A DNA stretch of 64,000 nt from an uncultured Acidobacteriota bacterium (GCA_963778755.1 CAVZVJ010000004.1:18836-82835); one strand, 5' to 3'; positions 45,148-64,000 are shown, counted from the first letter of the stretch. Made by a program: numbers and translations. The notes: generated from the letters alone by a model not told the origin.

Positions 45148-45208
45148 CCTCGGCAGGAATGTAGACGTGTCTTGCTGGCGGGCGCTTTGACCTTGTGGCG
45201 AAGGTTCC

Positions 45209-46583
45209 TCAGTCGAAGCCGAAGAGCGGGGGAAGAACGACGACGACGACCGCCGCCCAGATGGCGAAGACGGGGAGATAGGAGGTTTGCCAGCGTTCGA
45301 GGCGGTGGAAGGCGATCTGTCCCCTGAGAAACCGCATAGATAGCCAGGCTGCCCCGGCCAGGTTCACCAGCAGGACGAGGTTGAGCCCCAGCGCCGCCGT
45401 ACGGTTCGGGGTGAACCCGAGGTCACTGATGCGGGCCACCATCGTGCCCAACACCATCACGTCGAGCACGAGCGCGCTGGCGACGGTGACGAGTTGGACG
45501 CGGTCCATCCATCCCGGCGGGAGAGACGGCTGCCGCGCCGAGGATCGCGTAGAGCACCAGTCCGAGCACAACCACCAGCAGGACGTCGAAGACTCCGAGC
45601 AACTCTCGGTCGAACACTCCAGAGAGCCCGGTCCCTGCGTAGGTGACCGCGGCGACGGTCAGCATCAAGGCGAACAGGGGAGTGAAGAGCATGGTCAGAA
45701 CCGGGGCCATGTTTTCCACGACCCGCTGTTTGGACTCCACGAGCCACGCTGCGATGATCACCGCACCGGCCGCGCCCGAGGGCAACACCCACTCGAAGAC
45801 CAACTGCGGGAGGTCGGTTCCGATCGGCTGCAGTATCAGCGCGGTGAGCATGACCAGCACACCGCCACCGAGGGCGATCAGCGCGTAATAGATGACCCAC
45901 TCTCCGGTGAAACGAACGAAGTCCATTCGCCGTTCGTGCGATCGGAGCGTGCCGCTCACGTACGGGTAGGCGACCGCGAACCACAACAAGACAGGCAGAT
46001 AGAGCGCCACCAGAAGCTCGGTGTCCGAGATCGTCGTCGCGAAGACCTCGGTGTTCGAGCCCGCGCCGAATGGGTAGAGGTTGACCAGCAGTGCGGAGAG
46101 GACAAACGGCGCAGCGGTTAGCAACCATCGTCTGATGTCGAACTGCCGCCGAATGGCGAAGTACCCGGCGAGGAAGGGCAACACGAACAAACTCGCGTTT
46201 CGCAGCAGCCACCCCGGTTCCTCCTCGGGAAACCCAGCCGCGAGCCGTGCGATTTGGATCGCGACAGCGGCGGCCAGGGCGAAGCCGAGCGCCTCGAAAC
46301 CCCCGCTGGACGGACGCGCTGGCTCATCCTCATCTGTGGCGATCAGCTGCTTCCAGAGTCGATCGCTGTGCTCGAGAGCGAACTCCCGGGATAGGGTGTC
46401 GATGTCCCCCATGCGCTTCACAGCAACGAGGAACGCCTCATCGGCCGTGAGGCCGGCCGAATCCAACTCGGCGATCTGATCGCGAAGATGACCCTCTAGC
46501 TCATCGACGTCCCGGCCGTTCACGGCCGGGGCCCTTCCGACGTAGGCCCGCCACTCGGCAATTTGTGTTTCCACGGCATCCAT
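45209..46583 (-). pseudogene. PadR-associated polytopic membrane protein (N-terminal cytoplasmic helical prefix plus DUF4153-like permease body), with the frame broken once (+1)
   Basis: ORF 45423..46583 (AEWRAYVGRAP...LVAVKRMGDIDTLSREFA, then many TM helices) continues as GWMDRVQLVTVASALVLDVMVLG... in ORF 45209..45571. The junction is near 45511-45525. Confidence 0.65.
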
Positions 46584-56962: not shown

Positions 56963-57462
56963 CCGTGACCAACGTCCGCAAGGATCCACTTGCAATGAGC
57001 ATGACGATCACCGCCGAGTTCGATACGTCGATCGGACCGGTATGGCAGATGTGGGAGGATCCTCGTCTGCTCGAGCGATGGTGGGGGCCTCCGACCTTTC
57101 CGGCGACCGTCGTCGCCTACGACCTGACCCCGGGTGGCATGGTCGACTACTTCATGACCGGCCCCGAAGGCGAACAGCCTCACGGCTGGTGGCGGATCAT
57201 CGAGGTCGATGCTCCCCACGACCTCGAATTCGAGGCCGGCTTCGCCGACGTCGACGGCCAACCCGATCCCAACATGCCGACATCGATCATCCGCGTGAAC
57301 CTCGACGAACAGCCCGACGGCGGCACTCGCATGACGATCGAGACCATTTTCCCCACAGTCGAGGTGATGGAACAGGTGCTGGCCATGGGCATGGAGGAAG
57401 GCATGACACTCGCGGTTGGACAGATCGACGGACTACTCGAGGCCGAGGTCACCGCCCGCTAG
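56959..57462 (+). CDS. SRPBCC (AHSA1/START-like) family protein
   Basis: It overlaps the ArsR stop by 4 nt. Reads VWQMWEDPRLLERWWGPP...GGMVDYFMTGPEG...WWRIIEVDAPH. This is the typical ArsR-SRPBCC pairing. Confidence 0.85.
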   Translation: MTVTNVRKDPLAMSMTITAEFDTSIGPVWQMWEDPRLLERWWGPPTFPATVVAYDLTPGGMVDYFMTGPEGEQPHGWWRIIEVDAPHDLEFEAGFADVDGQPDPNMPTSIIRVNLDEQPDGGTRMTIETIFPTVEVMEQVLAMGMEEGMTLAVGQIDGLLEAEVTAR

Positions 57463-57527
57463 CCGGCGTGTTCCCAAGAACCCCGCACGAATCCGGTTGA
57501 CTGTGGGGGGATGAACCAAAGAGCCGG

Positions 57528-59088
57528 ATGAGCAACGGGCAGTTCCTGTCGAGTGTCACTTACTTCCTGGCCTTGTTTGCCGCCATCCCGGCGCTCTTGG
57601 TGACCTGGCTATTGCTCCGCAGGTATCGGAAATCGGTGATCAGGCTGATGAATCAGCGGGGCGTCCCTCAGGCCGGGTCGGAACCGGAGCCGGCCGTCCC
57701 GGTCCGACCCGAACCGGAAGAGGGCAACTCGGTCACCGTCGACGTCGGGATTCGACGCAACGTCGCTCTGGTGGTGATCATCGGGATCCTTGGAGGCCTC
57801 GCCTTCGGAGCCCTCTTCCTCACCGGGAACGACTTGGAAGTCGGGCCCTACCGTCTCGCCTTCTTCGGAGTGCTCTACTCCTGGCCCTCGGTCCTCGGCA
57901 TTTGGATCGTGACCGGGGCGAGGCGTCGCTGGGTGTGGTCCTCGATGGCCATTTACTTCGTGGTCCTCATGGTCGTCAGCCTCATCGCCGGGGCCCACCC
58001 GAGCGACCCCGTGAAGCTCTGGCTGTGGAGTCTGATCCCGACCGTGGCGGTGATCGGGTTCATGGCCCGCCCGTTGCGAGGGGTTGGGACCATGGTGCTC
58101 GGGGTGATGATGGCGGGGATTGTCGGATCCCAGGCGTTTGCCGTCTCAGTCGTCGGATCGGACCCGTTGCTCAACCTCTGGATCGACGTCACCACAGCCC
58201 TTGGGCTCGGCGACGCCAACCTCCAGTTCTACGGGCTCCAGGTGGTCGGGTTCCTCGGGGCCATACTCGTCGCCCTTCTCGCGGTGCGACTCCTCGCCGG
58301 CTGGTACGCCGGGCGCGGGTTCTCCGATCAGATGCTGTTGCTTGGCTCGGTGTTCCTGGTGTTCGCCATCGACTATTCGGTCTCCGTTGACCCCACCGAC
58401 GGCAGCGCCTTCTGGGTGGGGATGGCCATGTATGGCGCCCTCGGCCTGGTGGCGTTGCTCCTGTACCGGGTGGTCCATCGACCCGGAGCCCATCCGGTGA
58501 ATCTCTTGGTGCTTCGGGTGTTCTCCCCGCGTCAGGGGGCCCAGCGCCTCCTGGAACGGATCGACGCCGAATGGAGGTATGTGGGCCCGGTGAGGATGAT
58601 CGGCGGCCCCGACCTGGCCATCGCCTCCGTCGAGCCCGACGAGTTCATCCAATTCGTCCTCGGCCGTCTGCGCCGACTGTTCATCGACGCACCGGCCACA
58701 CTCGAGCACAGGCTCGAGCGCCCTCAACACCCGGGCCGACCCCGACGCCAGATACCGGGTCGAGGAGTTCTTCTGCTTCGACGACACTTGGCGACTGACG
58801 GTGGCCCAGCTCCTGGCCCGCAGCGACGTGGTGATGATGGATCTCCGCGGGTTCGGCGCCGACCATCATGGATGCATCGACGAGCTGGCATTGCTCGGCT
58901 CCGAGCAAGCCCTCACCCGGACTGTCCTCCTGGTCGACGCCACCACCGATCGCAAACTGCTCGACTCGATCTTGCCTGACGATCCGGGAAGCGCTCCGAC
59001 GCTGATCGGGGTCGCCGACTATGACCCCGCCGCTCCGACCGTCGCCGCCTGCCTGGCCGCGGCAACTCGGGGAGCCAGCCCCAGCTGA
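57528..59088 (+). pseudogene. polytopic membrane protein with a soluble C-terminal domain, with the frame broken once (+1); first gene of the TIR cluster
   Basis: Has about 9-10 TM helices. Then NLLVLRVFSPRQGAQRLLERIDAEWRYVGPVRMIGGPDLAI...ATLEHRLE (frame of 57528) continues as RALNTRADPDARYRVEEFFCFDDTWRLTVAQLLARSDVVMMDLRGFGADHHGCIDEL (frame of 58801). The junction is near 58715-58725. Confidence 0.6.
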
Positions 59089-59094
59089 CGGTAG

Positions 59095-61162
59095 ATTCTC
59101 CCCATCGAACTGATCGCTTCGATCAAGCGTCGTCTGGCCAGCCCGCGGATCTTCATAAGTTATCGGCGCAGCGATGCGGGAGGACATGCGGGCAGGCTTC
59201 ATGCCGCCCTCTCTGATTACTACGCCGGCCGGGCGATCTGGCTCGACCACGAGACCCTTGGGCCGGGCGAGGACTTCGCCACCGCCCTGGACGCCGCGCT
59301 GGCCGGCAGCGACGCGTTGCTGGCCATCATCGGTCCCGACTGGCTGACTGCCGAGAGAGACGGCAAGCGTCGACTCGACGATCCCGACGACTGGGTGCGC
59401 CGCGAGATCGCCATCGCTCTTGGTCTGAGCAGAGTCTCCGTCATTCCGGTCTTGGTCGGTGACACTGAGCTCCCCACGGCCGAGCAGCTTCCAGAGCCGC
59501 TGCAGCGCCCTGCCCGGCCGGCAGGCGATCACGGTGCGGCCCGACCGTTTCGAGGACGACGTCGACAATCTCATCGAGCACATCGGGGGACGACGGCGGC
59601 GCTGGCACGGGTTCCCGCTCTGGACCTGGCTGGCGGCCGCAGGTGTGCTAATCGCTGTCGTAGCGGTCGCTTTCGTGATTCGGAGCAACCGGGCACCCCA
59701 GTTCGACCTGCCGGCTCCGGTTACCGCAATTGGACAGACCGAGACAGAAATCGACCTTCTTCCCTGGATCGAGGACGAGGACAAGTCCAGCCTGAAGTTC
59801 TCCTTCGAGAACGAGTCAGTTCATGGCGGCAGCGTGCTGGAGATGGGTGGGGGAGTCATCACTTATGTAGGTCCGGGCCGATACCGAGGACCGGACTCGT
59901 TCCAATTCACTGTCACCGACGATCACGGCGAGAAGACGACAGAGACCATGAGCATCGATGTCACCCTGGGGCCCATCGGAGGCCTGTTCAACGTGGCCGT
60001 TGCTGAGTTCTCCGCGACCGGCCAGGCTCCGGCCGCCGCCGTGTCCGAGTCTCTCTATCAACAGATCGTCTCTGCTCTGAAAGACACGGGGGTCGAGATC
60101 GAGGTTGCCGGGCCAGCTGAGGTCGGCCTCATCGCCGGCGACACTCCCGACAGCCGGGCCGAGGCCGCGGCTCGGTTTGCTGAACAGACCGCCGCCGACG
60201 TGGTGGTCTACGGGGCCCTCGACACCGATGGGGGAGTTTCGAATATCTCCGCAGAGTTCTATCTCTCAGGGCGGAGTCTGGGTGATGTCGAGGAACTGGT
60301 TGGCACCTACGCCCTGGACACCGAGGAGTTGGGTGCCACCGCGCCGGCGGCTTTGAGCAGCAAGGCAAACCAAATTCTGGCGCCCAAGGTCGAGGCTCTG
60401 ACCAAGCTGGCGCTGGGGCTTAGTCACTACCAGTTGCAGGAATACGAAGAGGCGAAGGATCTCTTTGTTGATGCGGCCGTGGACTGGCCCGGAAGTGGCA
60501 ATGACACGAACGGGCAGGAAGTTGTGTTCCACCTCCTGGGAAACGTCAACGGGCTGCTCGGCGACCTCGACGAGGCTGAGTCCTCCTACGAACGGGCTTT
60601 GGGGCTCAACCCCGATTACTCCCGAGCTCAGTTCGGGATGGCGGAGGTCAAATACCAGCGCTCGAGAGGGCCTAATTGCGCCGGAGATGGGCCAGTCGAC
60701 ATCGCTGGTTTGCAGAGCGCGATCGATGACTTCGAAAAGGTGGCCGGGATGGACGCGCCGGAGCTCGCCTTTCTTCCGGAGCGATCACAGATCGAGATCG
60801 CACGTATCGATCTTTGTCTGAGCAGCTATGGCGCCGGTGGCCAGGCGGAGGCCTTGTCCGTGCTCGAAACGGTGCTGCCCGGCCTCGAGGCCGACTCTCG
60901 AACCAGGGACCTGGCGGCTGAGGCTCACGCCACCCTCGGCGCCTACTACATGTCGATAGGTGAGAATCAGAGAGCAGCTAGCGAGTTTGAGACTGCAGTC
61001 GACAGCACTTTGGACACGGTGCGGCTGCGGAGGTTCTACATCTCGTTGGACTACGTGTACCGGTGTCTGCTCCAAATCGACGACATGGCTAATCGGTACT
61101 TGCAAGAGGCGCAAAGCCTCCCAGGGGATCCGATCGCAGCCGCAACCTGTCCTCCTGAGTAA
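59095..61162 (+). pseudogene. TIR-domain protein with TM helix, Ig/cadherin-like domain, TolB_N-like region and TPRs, with the frame broken once (+1) and no canonical start codon
   Basis: The TIR part reads RIFISYRRSDAGGHAGRLHAAL...DALLAIIGPDWL...DWVRREIAIAL...VIPVLVG...LPEPLQ (frame 1), then LPGRQAITVRPDRFEDDVDNLIEHI (frame 2, ORF 59459..61162). The junction is near 59503-59512. The TM is FPLWTWLAAAGVLIAVVAVAFVI. Then come ITYVGPGRYRGPDSFQFTVTDDHGEKTTETMSIDV, FNVAVAEFSATGQ and TPR-like repeats. Confidence 0.7.
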
Positions 61163-61207
61163 AAGAGGCGTAGGGTTCCAGATGCGCGCCTTTGGAGGGG
61201 CTCGGAA

Positions 61208-62152
61208 ATGAAGCGCAGTACCGGATTGATGCTGGCGTTGCTTTTGGCGACGTCTTGTGGTGGCGATGCCGTGGCCAGCACCACGTCGGCAGCCAGCGCC
61301 TCTTCGTCGAGCAGCACCACCTCGACGACGACGACCATTCCCGAGACCACGACCGAAGCAGGACCGACAACCACCGGTGGACCACCGGCCACTCTTCCTT
61401 CCGAGATCGCCCAGACCGTCTTCGCGTTTGCCGGGGGACAGTCTCAGATCTTTGTGACGGTCGAGGTCGCCGATTCGCCAAACGGCCCCTGGCTGCCCGC
61501 CGGGATTTTCCTCGATTTCCCACCGGCGCTCAGCGGGCCCAACTACTGGGTCAAATTCACTATTGAGAACCAGGACGAGCTGGGACAGGTCGTAGATGTC
61601 GAGATTTCGGGGGAGAGCGGATTCGACCTTGGGACGGATGTGTGCGCATTGGACTTCCCGATTCCTATCGGTGGCTCTGACAGTTGCGTTGTGGGCGACA
61701 CAGAGGGCTTCCCGGTCCTCTCCGGTACCACGGAGAACGACTTCTTCATCACTGCAAAGAGCCAGCACCAGGGGTTGGGTGACGGCCTCTGGTTCCAGCC
61801 CGAGGTGCCCACGACGCTCGAGTTCGATGGCGCCAGGCACAGTTTCGTGTTCCTGTTCGACGTCGGCTCAAGCGATGAGGGCGTGAGGGTCGACGGCAAG
61901 GCCGATGGGTCGGCGGTCGCTATTTCCGGTTTGTCGGGCCCGGTCCGCGTCGACTGTTCGGATGGGTTCTCGAACGGGGTGAGCGACACCGGGGGGAGCC
62001 CCCGTTCGGGCGAACCGACCATCGTGGCCTATGTCATCGAGAACTTCTCCCGTTCTGGAGAAAGTCAAGGAGGATGCGCCGAGATCCCGACCGAGATACT
62101 CGATATGGATATCGACGGCGACACGTTCGCCTACGCCTATGTCGGTCCGTAG
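61208..62152 (+). CDS. putative lipoprotein with Ser/Thr-rich linker (hypothetical)
   Basis: MKRSTGLMLALLLATSCGG is a lipobox-like signal. It is followed by ASTTSAASASSSSSTTSTTTTIPETTTEAGPTTTGGPP. The globular part is Cys-containing and has no recognised family. Confidence 0.65.
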   Translation: MKRSTGLMLALLLATSCGGDAVASTTSAASASSSSSTTSTTTTIPETTTEAGPTTTGGPPATLPSEIAQTVFAFAGGQSQIFVTVEVADSPNGPWLPAGIFLDFPPALSGPNYWVKFTIENQDELGQVVDVEISGESGFDLGTDVCALDFPIPIGGSDSCVVGDTEGFPVLSGTTENDFFITAKSQHQGLGDGLWFQPEVPTTLEFDGARHSFVFLFDVGSSDEGVRVDGKADGSAVAISGLSGPVRVDCSDGFSNGVSDTGGSPRSGEPTIVAYVIENFSRSGESQGGCAEIPTEILDMDIDGDTFAYAYVGP

Positions 62153-62198
62153 CCGAGACCCCGGCGCGTAGGCTCGCCACGACAAGAGGAGGGATTCG

Positions 62199-63152
62199 AT
62201 GGGCCACGTCACGTTCATTCACGGCATCATGAACCAGCCGTCGCCAGAGCGGCTGCTCACCACCTGGAAACGGGACCTCGCCGACGGAGGTGACGGTGTC
62301 GACCTCGACGTCTACGGCGTCACCTCGTCGATGGTCTACTGGGCAGACGTCATGTACCCGGTCCCCACCGACTCCGGCGGCACGCACGAGTCGATCGAGT
62401 ACGAGGGCATCGAGTCGGGTGCTCTTACCGAGGTCGACGAGTCGTACATCGACGAGGCCGATGGCGAGGAGAAGGCTTTCATCGATGCGATGGTCGCCAA
62501 TTACGACCTCGACCATGTGGACGAGGCCGAGGCACCCGAACCATCCGACCAGCCGGTGGTCCCTCCTGAGGCGAAATTGGCGGCGGCCTCGGCCCTGGAG
62601 GCAGTTCCTCTTCCCTGGTTCATCAAGGGCCCGATGATGAGGGTCCTGCTCCGCGATGTGCACCACTATCTCTTCAACTCGACCCACTCGCCACGCACCG
62701 GCACTACCTACAAGGTCCGAGACGAGGTCCGGAGCCGGTTCGTCGCCGACCTTTCCAAAGTGAGCGACCGTCCTCATGTGGTCGTGGCCCACAGTCTGGG
62801 GACGGTGATCAGTTATGACTGTTTGAAGCGGGTGGCGAACACCAAGGAGATCGACATGCTGATCACCCTCGGGACGCCGCTCGGCCTCTCCGAGGTGGAG
62901 GACAAGCTCAAGCCGGAGTGGTCAAAGGACGACGGGTTCCCCTCAATCGTTCCCCGCTGGGAGAACGTCGTCGACCGTCTCGACCCGGTGTGCGCCGCCG
63001 ACCCCTTCCTCGCCAACGACTACAAGCGCAAGAATCAGGCGGTGGTCGTCGACCGTGTGGTTTCCAACGGCGGAGCGTTCCGCCATCCCTCGGGCAAGTA
63101 CTTCCGCCAGCAGGTGGTTCAGGACGCCGTCCGTGAGGGTCTCGGCCTCTGA
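62199..63152 (+). CDS. lipase-like alpha/beta hydrolase
   Basis: Reads HVTFIHGIMNQP, has the nucleophile elbow VVVAHSLGTVISYDCL, then LITLGTPLG and DRLDPV. Confidence 0.65.
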   Translation: MGHVTFIHGIMNQPSPERLLTTWKRDLADGGDGVDLDVYGVTSSMVYWADVMYPVPTDSGGTHESIEYEGIESGALTEVDESYIDEADGEEKAFIDAMVANYDLDHVDEAEAPEPSDQPVVPPEAKLAAASALEAVPLPWFIKGPMMRVLLRDVHHYLFNSTHSPRTGTTYKVRDEVRSRFVADLSKVSDRPHVVVAHSLGTVISYDCLKRVANTKEIDMLITLGTPLGLSEVEDKLKPEWSKDDGFPSIVPRWENVVDRLDPVCAADPFLANDYKRKNQAVVVDRVVSNGGAFRHPSGKYFRQQVVQDAVREGLGL

Positions 63153-63157
63153 GCGAC

Positions 63158-64000
63158 ATGTCCTTTCTCGATTCGCCACTCGGTGAGCGGCTCCAGTCAA
63201 GCCTGGACAGCGCCGACCCTGACCAGATCGATGCCGCTGCCCACGAAGTAGGGGCCAAGGTCTGGGCCGGGTCGCTGACCCCGGAAGAGGCGGGGGAGGT
63301 GATGGCGCTGCTTGAACGGCAACGGCAGTTCGGCCATGTAATCGATATTGGAGAGGCGGCGATGGCGGTGGGTGCGGTTGGGGCCGGTGCCCGCCGTCGT
63401 TACTGCCAGGCCCTGATCGAAACCGGGGCGCTGCACGCTGCCGAACTGGCCCTGGAGGAGAACCTGGAGTCGGTAGACGACCCGGAGGCCCGCGGTGAAA
63501 TCCTCGGCCTGATGGGCAGGGCGCGCAAACAGCGTTTCGTCACCGGGGGAAGGCCCGAGGACCTTTTGGCTGCGATCGATGCCTACCGGCGGGGATATGA
63601 GGGCAACACCGATCGGGCCTGGCACGGGGTAAACCTCCTGGCCCTCACCTGCCGGGCAGCCCGGGACGGAGTCGAGGTCCCCGACGCCGTGGACACCAAG
63701 AAGCTGGCGGATGAGATCCTTGCGTTGTCGCGGGCCAAAGACCCCGACTTGCGCTCGGTTTGGGAGCGGAGCACCGAGATCGAGGCACTGGTGGCGATGG
63801 GGGACGAGGCGCACGCTGCTGAGGCGGTAGCGGCTGCCGAGCAGTTGTCGACCAGCCTTCGGGTCAGCCCGTTCGAGATGCGAAGCCTGCGTCGGCAACT
63901 GGTGGATATCTGGCAACTCGAATCCCATCATCCGGTGCTGGTGGCTATGGCCGACCGCCAACTCCAGCTGGGCGCCGGTTCCCAGGTCGACCTGCCCAGC
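63158..64000 (+). CDS. DUF4071 / ASK1-type TPR (MAP3K TRAF-binding-like) domain protein, 3'-truncated by the window edge
   Basis: Not in the ORF track because no stop lies within the window. My translation from ATG 63158 is open to base 64000. ILGLMGRARKQRFV...LLAAIDAYRRGYEGNTDRAWHGVNLLALT parallels the GRIYKD...Y.kgf...y.GINl motif of this family. It starts 5 nt after the hydrolase stop. Confidence 0.6.
   Translation, partial: MSFLDSPLGERLQSSLDSADPDQIDAAAHEVGAKVWAGSLTPEEAGEVMALLERQRQFGHVIDIGEAAMAVGAVGAGARRRYCQALIETGALHAAELALEENLESVDDPEARGEILGLMGRARKQRFVTGGRPEDLLAAIDAYRRGYEGNTDRAWHGVNLLALTCRAARDGVEVPDAVDTKKLADEILALSRAKDPDLRSVWERSTEIEALVAMGDEAHAAEAVAAAEQLSTSLRVSPFEMRSLRRQLVDIWQLESHHPVLVAMADRQLQLGAGSQVDLPS

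Follow-up and report, generated by a model that had tools for sequence, protein, structure and literature searches.

The 64,000-nucleotide (nt) stretch of DNA analysed here (the window; GCA_963778755.1 CAVZVJ010000004.1:18836-82835, titled as an uncultured Acidobacteriota bacterium) ends in a cluster of five plus-strand genes, g1 to g5, at positions 57528-64000. From its sequence, this cluster is best read as a real, conserved and modular locus that would encode an uncharacterised TIR/TPR-S system of the conflict type. Its invariant core is the translationally linked pair g4-g5, which encodes a lipase-like α/β-hydrolase and a TPR-S scaffold carrying a trypsin-like protease domain. The genes g1 to g3, which encode a polytopic membrane protein, a receptor-like TIR protein and a probable lipoprotein, form a clade-specific membrane module in Acidimicrobiia.

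Gene neighbourhoods were compared across 80 genome loci anchored on g1 and 80 metagenome loci anchored on g4, and the five genes do co-occur in related genomes. The order g1 to g5 is found in eight species-level metagenome-assembled genomes (MAGs) of Acidimicrobiia besides the window (L001, L004, L008, L009, L011, L013, L014 and L015), and the block is truncated by contig ends at L010 and L012. L004 is syntenic with the window and the L001 block lies between RNase J and FtsK. The presence of the five genes in two chromosomal contexts argues that the block has moved as a unit. Four 'MFD' MAGs with an Acidimicrobiia-type cluster (L011, L014, L018 and L034) are titled 'uncultured Acidobacteriota bacterium', which looks like a labelling inconsistency.

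The g4-g5 pair reaches across many phyla. A gene for a TPR-S and Trypsin_2 protein lies directly downstream of the g4 homologue in seven of seven long-contig look-ups, whose flanks are otherwise unrelated, and at all 61 metagenome loci whose downstream sequence extends for about 600 nt or more. On the long contigs the two genes are 5-9 nt apart, or overlap by 4 nt at four distant loci (L087-L090, including Desulforhopalus and a Pseudomonadota MAG). Other loci carry g2 to g5 without g1 (L097 and L103, with glycosyltransferase genes upstream at L097), g4-g5 without g1 to g3 (L092, L096 and L098), or g1 several kilobases (kb) away with other genes in between (L034 and L091). The five-gene unit proposed in the first-pass annotation, a reading of the window's sequence alone, thus stands as a conserved block (eight MAGs, two contexts) but not as one fixed system, since g4-g5 are autonomous in many phyla and g1 or g1 to g3 are missing at some loci.

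Translation of positions 57400-64000 in the three forward frames gave the coding regions listed in Table 1, with intergenic spacings of 6, 45, 46 and 5 nt as originally reported; the first of these separates the g1 stop at 59088 from the opening of the g2 frame at 59095. The five open reading frames (ORFs) described earlier exist as coding regions, but g1 and g2 are not continuous ORFs, each being interrupted by a one-base frameshift. The last gene was correctly expected to continue past the window: its full product, P0343, taken from the same contig, has 523 amino acids (aa). A single operon had also been proposed. The cluster region contains no Rfam match and no promoter-like site detected by our scan, and its two terminator-like sites, each within coding sequence, compare with 3.8 expected from shuffled sequences. 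The lack of promoter-like sites and the few terminator-like sites are, like the gene spacing, compatible with one transcript, although such scans do not prove it. At L004, a 558-aa Peptidase_S8 gene lies directly upstream of g1 (L004:8225-9901, minus strand); the two loci are otherwise syntenic and the window lacks this gene at about 57463-57527.

Table 1. Genes of the cluster and features within them, in window coordinates.
Feature	Position	Strand	Description	Basis
g1	57528-59088	+	Polytopic membrane protein, corrected length 519 aa, frameshifted in the window	ORF and frame analysis
g1 one-base insertion	58713-58717 (about 58715)	+	Extra C, CT[C]GAG	blastn against L004, GC3 frame scan
g2	59095-61162	+	TIR receptor-like protein, about 683-688 aa when corrected, probable CTG start at 59110, frameshifted in the window	
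g2 TIR domain	59149-59572	+	Residues 19-159 of the corrected protein	Pfam TIR_2 envelope
g2 one-base insertion	59502-59506 (about 59504)	+	Extra A, CTGC[A]GCG, within the TIR domain	blastn against L004, GC3 frame scan
g2 transmembrane helix	59609-59677	+	FPLWTWLAAAGVLIAVVAVAFVI	Predicted, from hydrophobicity of the translation only
g3	61208-62152	+	Probable lipoprotein with an uncharacterised domain	Translation
g4	62199-63152	+	Lipase-like minimal α/β-hydrolase, 317 aa	Alignments, AlphaFold2 (AF2), Foldseek
g5	63158 to beyond 64000	+	N-terminal 281 of 523 codons in the window; TPR-S scaffold	Pfam

The g5 product matches TPR-S (PF20308) at E=4.4e-15, with 56.6 bits against a cut-off of 27.6 bits (54.5 bits for full-length P0343). 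It had been called a DUF4071-type TPR protein. The broad assignment to an ASK1/DUF4071-type scaffold survives, as TPR-S and MAP3K_TRAF_bd co-match on proteobacterial g5 orthologues, the latter weakly; the family itself is TPR-S instead, g5 having no match to DUF4071/MAP3K_TRAF_bd (PF13281) at E<=0.1. The N-terminus carries no DRHyd/glycosidase domain. Outside the window, the C-terminus of P0343 matches Trypsin_2 (residues 323-483, E=2.8e-17, 64.2 bits) with intact triad motifs for H (TNAHV), D (DVTFLK) and S (GGSSGSPV), and the putative protease is apparently active; the closest sequences in the PDB are SplB and V8-type proteases. Three g5 homologues (P0441, P0445 and P0459) are fusions of GH108 lysozyme, PG_binding_3, TPR-S and Trypsin_2 domains, which physically tie peptidoglycan hydrolysis to the sensor-protease.

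The partner of g5 was annotated as lipase-like on first pass, and its intact Ser-Asp-His triad and fold similarity agree with this, although profile support is weak, with Abhydrolase_6 and LCAT both below the Pfam threshold. Ser199, Asp259/Asp262 and His296 are invariant in 57 homologues and H8-G9 almost so; Ser199 sits in an HSxG nucleophile elbow. The AF2 model (predicted local distance difference test score, pLDDT, 80.9) resembles in Foldseek the minimal lipases LipA and Lip_vut1, Legionella lpg2422, the DDHD domain of Nir2 and APT1, with probabilities of about 1.0 and E=8e-4 to 1e-2 for the LipA-type lipases. Fold, elbow and triad together identify g4 as an α/β-hydrolase. The family shares a cap motif, LPWFIK...LLRDVHHYLFN, and residues 55-135 of g4 form a variable acidic insert predicted to be disordered. 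Homologues of g4 fall into at least 1,884 clusters, of which the nearest with a name are from Acidimicrobiia. The protein is predicted to be cytoplasmic.

In its frame-corrected form, g2 matches TIR_2 (3.4e-14), TPR_2 (1.3e-11), Cadherin_5 (1.3e-6) and Big_9 (1.5e-6). The TIR_2 score of 53.8 bits is above the gathering score of 28 bits, and the TIR domain recognised in the first reading is thereby upheld; it contains a conserved Glu motif, WVRREI. This Glu lies in the helix expected for the catalytic Glu of TIR NADases; the position was assigned by eye and catalysis is putative. The TIR domain is followed by one transmembrane (TM) helix, an extracytoplasmic Cadherin_5/Big_9 Ig-like domain, an α/β region and TPR repeats, and on this predicted layout g2 is receptor-like, its TIR being intracellular and a large portion of the protein extracytoplasmic.

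The start of g2 is unusual. Upstream of the TIR domain there is no ATG, GTG or TTG, and the frame opens at an ATT (59095) right after a TAG, as it does right after a TAG in 9 of the 11 relatives' records compared, one of which is a duplicate locus. The sixth codon is a conserved CTG (59110 in the window), replaced by TTG in L008 in the start-region comparison of 11 loci; in L008-L011 and L015 this CTG/TTG overlaps the g1 stop as C/TTGA. The simplest reading is that g2 would start at the CTG, coupled to g1 termination, which suggests that a potentially toxic protein is translated from a non-canonical start that is probably inefficient. The junction lies at 59086-59112 in the window and the same junction is seen in L001, L004, L008-L011, L014 and L015.

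The g3 product begins with MKRSTGLMLALLLATSCGG, a hydrophobic signal with Cys17 in a non-canonical ATS-C box, followed by a Ser/Thr-rich linker, and is a probable lipoprotein. It has no family match in Pfam, PADLOC or NCBIfam, and its homologues are confined to Acidimicrobiia-type loci, with none detectable outside the clade.

The first gene of the cluster belongs to a membrane protein family with no match in Pfam, NCBIfam or PADLOC; a PDB profile search with g1 returned only spurious TM matches. The AF2 model (pLDDT 83.6, predicted template modelling score 0.83) has about nine TM helices whose loops follow the positive-inside rule and place the C-terminus in the cytoplasm. There, a conserved domain of about 200 aa adopts a six-stranded α/β fold in the model. 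The invariant residues of the family (R330, D362, D404, D406, R410, C416, D418, D438, R440, E452 and T473-D474) lie mostly directly after predicted β-strands or in adjoining loops. Nuc_deoxyrib_tr matches the family weakly, at E=0.01 and in only two of 18 members. A relationship of this domain to TIR/DRHyd-like domains or to the 176-aa protein described below was rejected (hhalign probabilities of 0.4% and 0.1%). The family is large, with 3,225 representative clusters at 50% clustering and homologues at more than 476 genome loci in Proteobacteria, Desulfobacterota, Binatia, Chloroflexota, Bacteroidota, Myxococcota and others.

Five g1 homologues (P0236, P0261, P0282, P0290 and P0315) are extended at the N-terminus by about 370-415 aa. 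The extensions of P0236 and P0261, both read whole, open with a signal-like or TM segment, and weak TPR-like repeats occur in four of the five, with none in P0282; the extensions give no clue to function. They are probably periplasmic, in which case the g1 family itself can be receptor-like. A Syntrophus MAG has two paralogues of g1 separated by about 0.9 kb (L064:10001-11482 and L064:12404-13840), and directly upstream of them are genes for a DRHyd-DUF4071 protein and a peptidoglycan hydrolase of the GH19 type.

The genes that accompany the cluster recur across lineages. At most Acidimicrobiia loci g5 is followed on the same strand by genes for a Peptidase_M15_4 plus PG_binding_1 protein, a small soluble TIR protein and a 176-aa protein. 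At L004 a convergent FHA-TIR gene comes next after g5, ahead of the 176-aa gene, and the genome of the window probably has the same arrangement; in the window's own lineage the cluster lacks a peptidoglycan hydrolase. The 176-aa domain (L001:12570-13100, L004:18296-18826 and L008:15383-16213) bears the motifs GHMxDxPxRxxPRFP ... GGDGPGGT and has no match in Pfam or the PDB. We considered and set aside its assignment as a SLOG/LOG domain, for which a reading of the GGDGPGGT motif is the only ground and to which Pfam and the PDB lend no support. Free-standing or fused C-terminally to DUF4071 proteins, it occurs at 15 g1 loci; in other phyla it forms the C-termini of DRHyd-DUF4071 proteins at L047, L058, L078 and L080.

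Outside Acidimicrobiia, g1 lies less than 10 kb from g4-g5 in unrelated lineages and in varied orientation (L016, L047, L058 and L066 among the g1-anchored loci, L154 and L168 among the g4-anchored ones). At 12 of 83 loci, separate genes encode genuine MAP3K_TRAF_bd/TPR-S proteins (E=1e-50) whose N-terminus is DRHyd-like, and DRHyd-DUF4071 genes flank g4-g5 at no fewer than nine metagenome loci. The other recurrent partners of g1 are TIR genes and peptidoglycan hydrolases of the GH19 or M15 types that lack signal peptides; such signal-less hydrolases (M15, GH19 or GH108) adjoin g5 or g1 at several loci. When the 96 genes that directly adjoin g1 on the same strand at loci outside Acidimicrobiia are tallied by Pfam family, the most frequent are TPR-S (4), MAP3K_TRAF_bd (3) and Patatin (3), level with Rieske (3) and Glyoxalase (3) and followed by TIR_2 (2), the rest being apparent lineage-specific housekeeping genes.

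Whether the cluster is the form taken in one lineage by a modular system of the conflict or programmed-lysis type, built around TIR domains and a TPR-S sensor, is in our view an even call. The TIR domain, g4, g5 and the C-terminal domain of g1 are all predicted, from sequence features and models, to be cytoplasmic. An envelope or infection cue would act on the g2 ectodomain, perhaps together with g3 and g1, and bring the TIR domains together. These would cleave nicotinamide adenine dinucleotide (NAD+) into an ADP-ribose-derived signal, which the TPR-S of g5 would bind, releasing its protease activity. The protease and its obligate hydrolase partner g4 would be unleashed or co-activated, joined by signal-less peptidoglycan hydrolases where these are present. 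The latter might reach the wall through a g1-dependent membrane lesion; g1 might serve as a membrane-breaching or a signal-transducing element. Membrane, wall or proteins would be destroyed and the cell would die or arrest.

Several findings weigh against this reading. The genes around the cluster, in the window and at L004, are housekeeping genes and not a defense island, and PADLOC has no model for g1, g3, g4 or g5. About two thirds of the g1 loci lack any partner gene by the queries used. The C-terminal domain of g1 could be tied to no nucleotide-binding family (hhalign probability below 1%), and Foldseek returned nothing significant for it (best E=3e-3, TM-score 0.1-0.2). Ligand binding by the TPR-S of g5 is a prediction only, and both g1 and g2 carry frameshifts here. 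At L087-L090 the g4-g5 pair stands alone among unrelated housekeeping flanks, with no TIR, DRHyd or g1 within 7 kb, and most of the distant metagenome g4-g5 loci have no match to the TIR, DUF4071 or g1 queries. These many solitary pairs indicate that a linked TIR is not required, which weakens the signalling step of the proposed mechanism and keeps alive an explanation in which two unrelated units merely sit side by side in Acidimicrobiia: an autonomous g4-g5 pair, whose TPR-S responds to some cue other than a TIR product, and a separate envelope receptor module, g1-g2-g3. The loci that keep g4-g5 without g1 to g3, and the two that lack g1, fit this explanation as well. We nevertheless judge it unlikely. 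The genes of g1 and g4-g5 are uncommon, and their adjacency in several unrelated phyla with differing orientations is hard to obtain by chance; both modules associate independently with TIR, DUF4071/TPR-S and the 176-aa protein; and the five genes moved jointly between two chromosomal contexts.

A different explanation, which we regard as quite improbable, is that the cluster belongs to a housekeeping or developmental pathway of envelope remodelling or stress, in which the g2 ectodomain and g3 monitor the wall and the protease, the lipase-like enzyme and the peptidoglycan hydrolases remodel the envelope under control, with no antiviral or suicide role. The extracytoplasmic Ig-like/TPR and lipoprotein parts would suit such a pathway, as would the peptidoglycan hydrolases with peptidoglycan-binding domains that are adjacent or fused, the glycosyltransferase and O-antigen-ligase-like genes that the L097 cluster abuts, and the lack of defense-island neighbours. 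The 2.9 million viral contigs of IMG/VR also contain no relatives of g1 or g4. However, it is mainly in conflict systems that TIR, DRHyd-DUF4071 and patatin partners have been described in bacteria, and the patchy, modular distribution with frameshifted copies is usual for dispensable, costly systems. In addition, neither g4 and g5 nor the neighbouring peptidoglycan hydrolases carry export signals, which suits lysis from within better than routine remodelling.

How does the proposed TIR/TPR-S system compare with described ones? The first-pass annotation knew of no named system with this gene set. The gaps in PADLOC agree with this, but the claim was too strong, as assemblies of TIR and TPR-S had reportedly been predicted already and one TIR plus DRHyd-TPR pair is reported to be anti-phage. 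In work of 2020, Burroughs and Aravind reportedly predicted such assemblies computationally, with the TPR-S scaffold sensing NAD+-derived signals in systems related to the animal ASK signalosome. Their domain set is said to comprise TIR, DRHyd-TPR-S, patatin, TM proteins, a possible SLOG-like protein and peptidases. The TPR-S gene of the cluster likewise stands beside TIR genes (g2, the FHA-TIR gene at L004 and the second TIR gene at most Acidimicrobiia loci), and related loci have DRHyd-DUF4071/TPR-S, patatin, TM proteins and a possible SLOG-like protein as neighbours. The cluster departs from those assemblies in that g5, which lacks an N-terminal DRHyd/glycosidase domain, ends in a trypsin-like protease and comes with an obligate lipase-like partner, that the TIR of the cluster is carried by a membrane receptor whose ectodomain is large, and that g1, g3 and g4 do not appear in the list of partners. 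A preprint that summarises the TPR-S centred NAD+-signal assemblies at second hand also reports a Bacillus cereus TIR plus DRHyd-TPR pair (BcTir/BcTpr) that confers phage resistance and makes a cyclic ADP-ribose isomer (preprint 10.1101/2023.05.26.542521).

Thoeris resembles the mechanism proposed here in its presumed logic, in which a TIR derives a signal from NAD+ and this signal turns on a distinct effector. The g2 product has weak ThsB-type matches (PADLOC ThsB1 at 2.2e-5, partial; NCBIfam ThcB4 at 1.7e-8). Thoeris itself was rejected, because the ThcB4 match scores only 33.8 of the 220 bits that its cut-off demands and neither the cluster nor L004 has a ThsA (SIR2/Macro-SLOG); the presumed sensor of the cluster, in contrast, is TPR-S and its effectors a protease and an α/β-hydrolase. 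The link to STAND systems drawn at first was not sustained either, as neither g1 to g5 nor the L004 flanks encode a STAND NTPase domain; an nSTAND1 was seen only at an unrelated distant locus, L005. The VMAP/MoxR-vWA ternary systems offer a parallel for the core pair, since their caspase peptidase always occurs with a neighbouring α/β-hydrolase gene, suggesting joint action (Kaur et al., 2020; PMC7159879). Both cases pair a conflict-type peptidase with an α/β-hydrolase gene, but the peptidase is a caspase there and trypsin-like and fused to TPR-S here, and MoxR, vWA and VMAP are all missing here.

The signal-less GH19, GH108 and M15 enzymes, with their peptidoglycan-binding domains, that are encoded beside the g1 membrane protein at several loci recall the holin-endolysin cassettes of phages. 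A prophage or phage lysis cassette as such was rejected on the absence of g1 and g4 relatives from IMG/VR. The g1 protein, with about nine TM helices and a 200-aa cytoplasmic domain, also differs from small holins, its pore activity is pure inference, and the window's lineage has no peptidoglycan hydrolase. We mention as a long shot that the g1 family is a ligand-gated, holin-like effector whose α/β domain senses a TIR- or DRHyd-derived nucleotide and opens the membrane, after which signal-less peptidoglycan hydrolases, g4 and g5 perform a regulated autolysis. This would be an unrecognised chromosomal suicide-lysis pathway, with g4-g5 as a new and widespread effector module.

The state of the locus in this genome deserves separate consideration. 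The two insertions in Table 1 are defined relative to the syntenic L004 locus, which is 87% identical in DNA and intact at both sites, and removing the one in g1 restores 519 aa, the length of an intact homologue (P0121, 82% identity). In a scan of the whole window for shifts of reading frame, based on G+C content at third minus second codon positions (GC3 minus GC2), these two junctions were the only clear frameshifts. A borderline junction at 45151-46290 (minus strand), where the upstream frame meets a stop 118 nt past the switch, could mark an ordinary boundary between genes or else a further, third frameshift. Each insertion creates a 6-bp palindrome (CTCGAG and CTGCAG), perhaps by coincidence. 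In other long-read assemblies, DUF4071/TPR-S or neighbouring genes near g4-g5 also look frameshifted by the GC3 scan (L002:15091-16380 and L003:15511-16200, minus strand).

The sensor-TIR arm, g1 and g2, may thus be inactive in this genome, or the insertions may be assembly errors. It is quite possible, if somewhat short of an even chance, that the locus is a decaying remnant here, with g1 and g2 true pseudogenes and only g3 to g5 potentially functional. Both insertions are uncompensated, and the one in g2 falls within the TIR domain. Their position outside homopolymer runs and in adjacent genes, where they are the only clear shifts in 64 kb, leans slightly towards real mutations over assembly error. 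On the other side, the source is apparently a long-read metagenome assembly, judged by the record names of relatives. Applied to sister loci, the same scan flagged one to two frameshifts for each 21 kb of long-read 'MFD' assembly, within the cluster as well as outside it, and none in short-read MAGs. Moreover, the coding sequence on either side is otherwise fully conserved relative to L004 and shows no additional lesions.

If the proposed TIR/TPR-S system is real, the repertoire of such systems would gain an effector arm that combines a protease with a lipase, as well as a TIR carried by a membrane receptor. The cluster would also provide a testable example of the TPR scaffold shared with animal ASK kinases reading a small-molecule signal. 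If it instead serves envelope remodelling, TIR signalling would here have an unusual role beyond immunity. The pair g4-g5, compact and tightly linked as well as widespread, is a practical target for expression and phage-challenge work. Three sizeable uncharacterised families, those of g1, g4 and the 176-aa protein, would acquire roles if the system proves to be as proposed.

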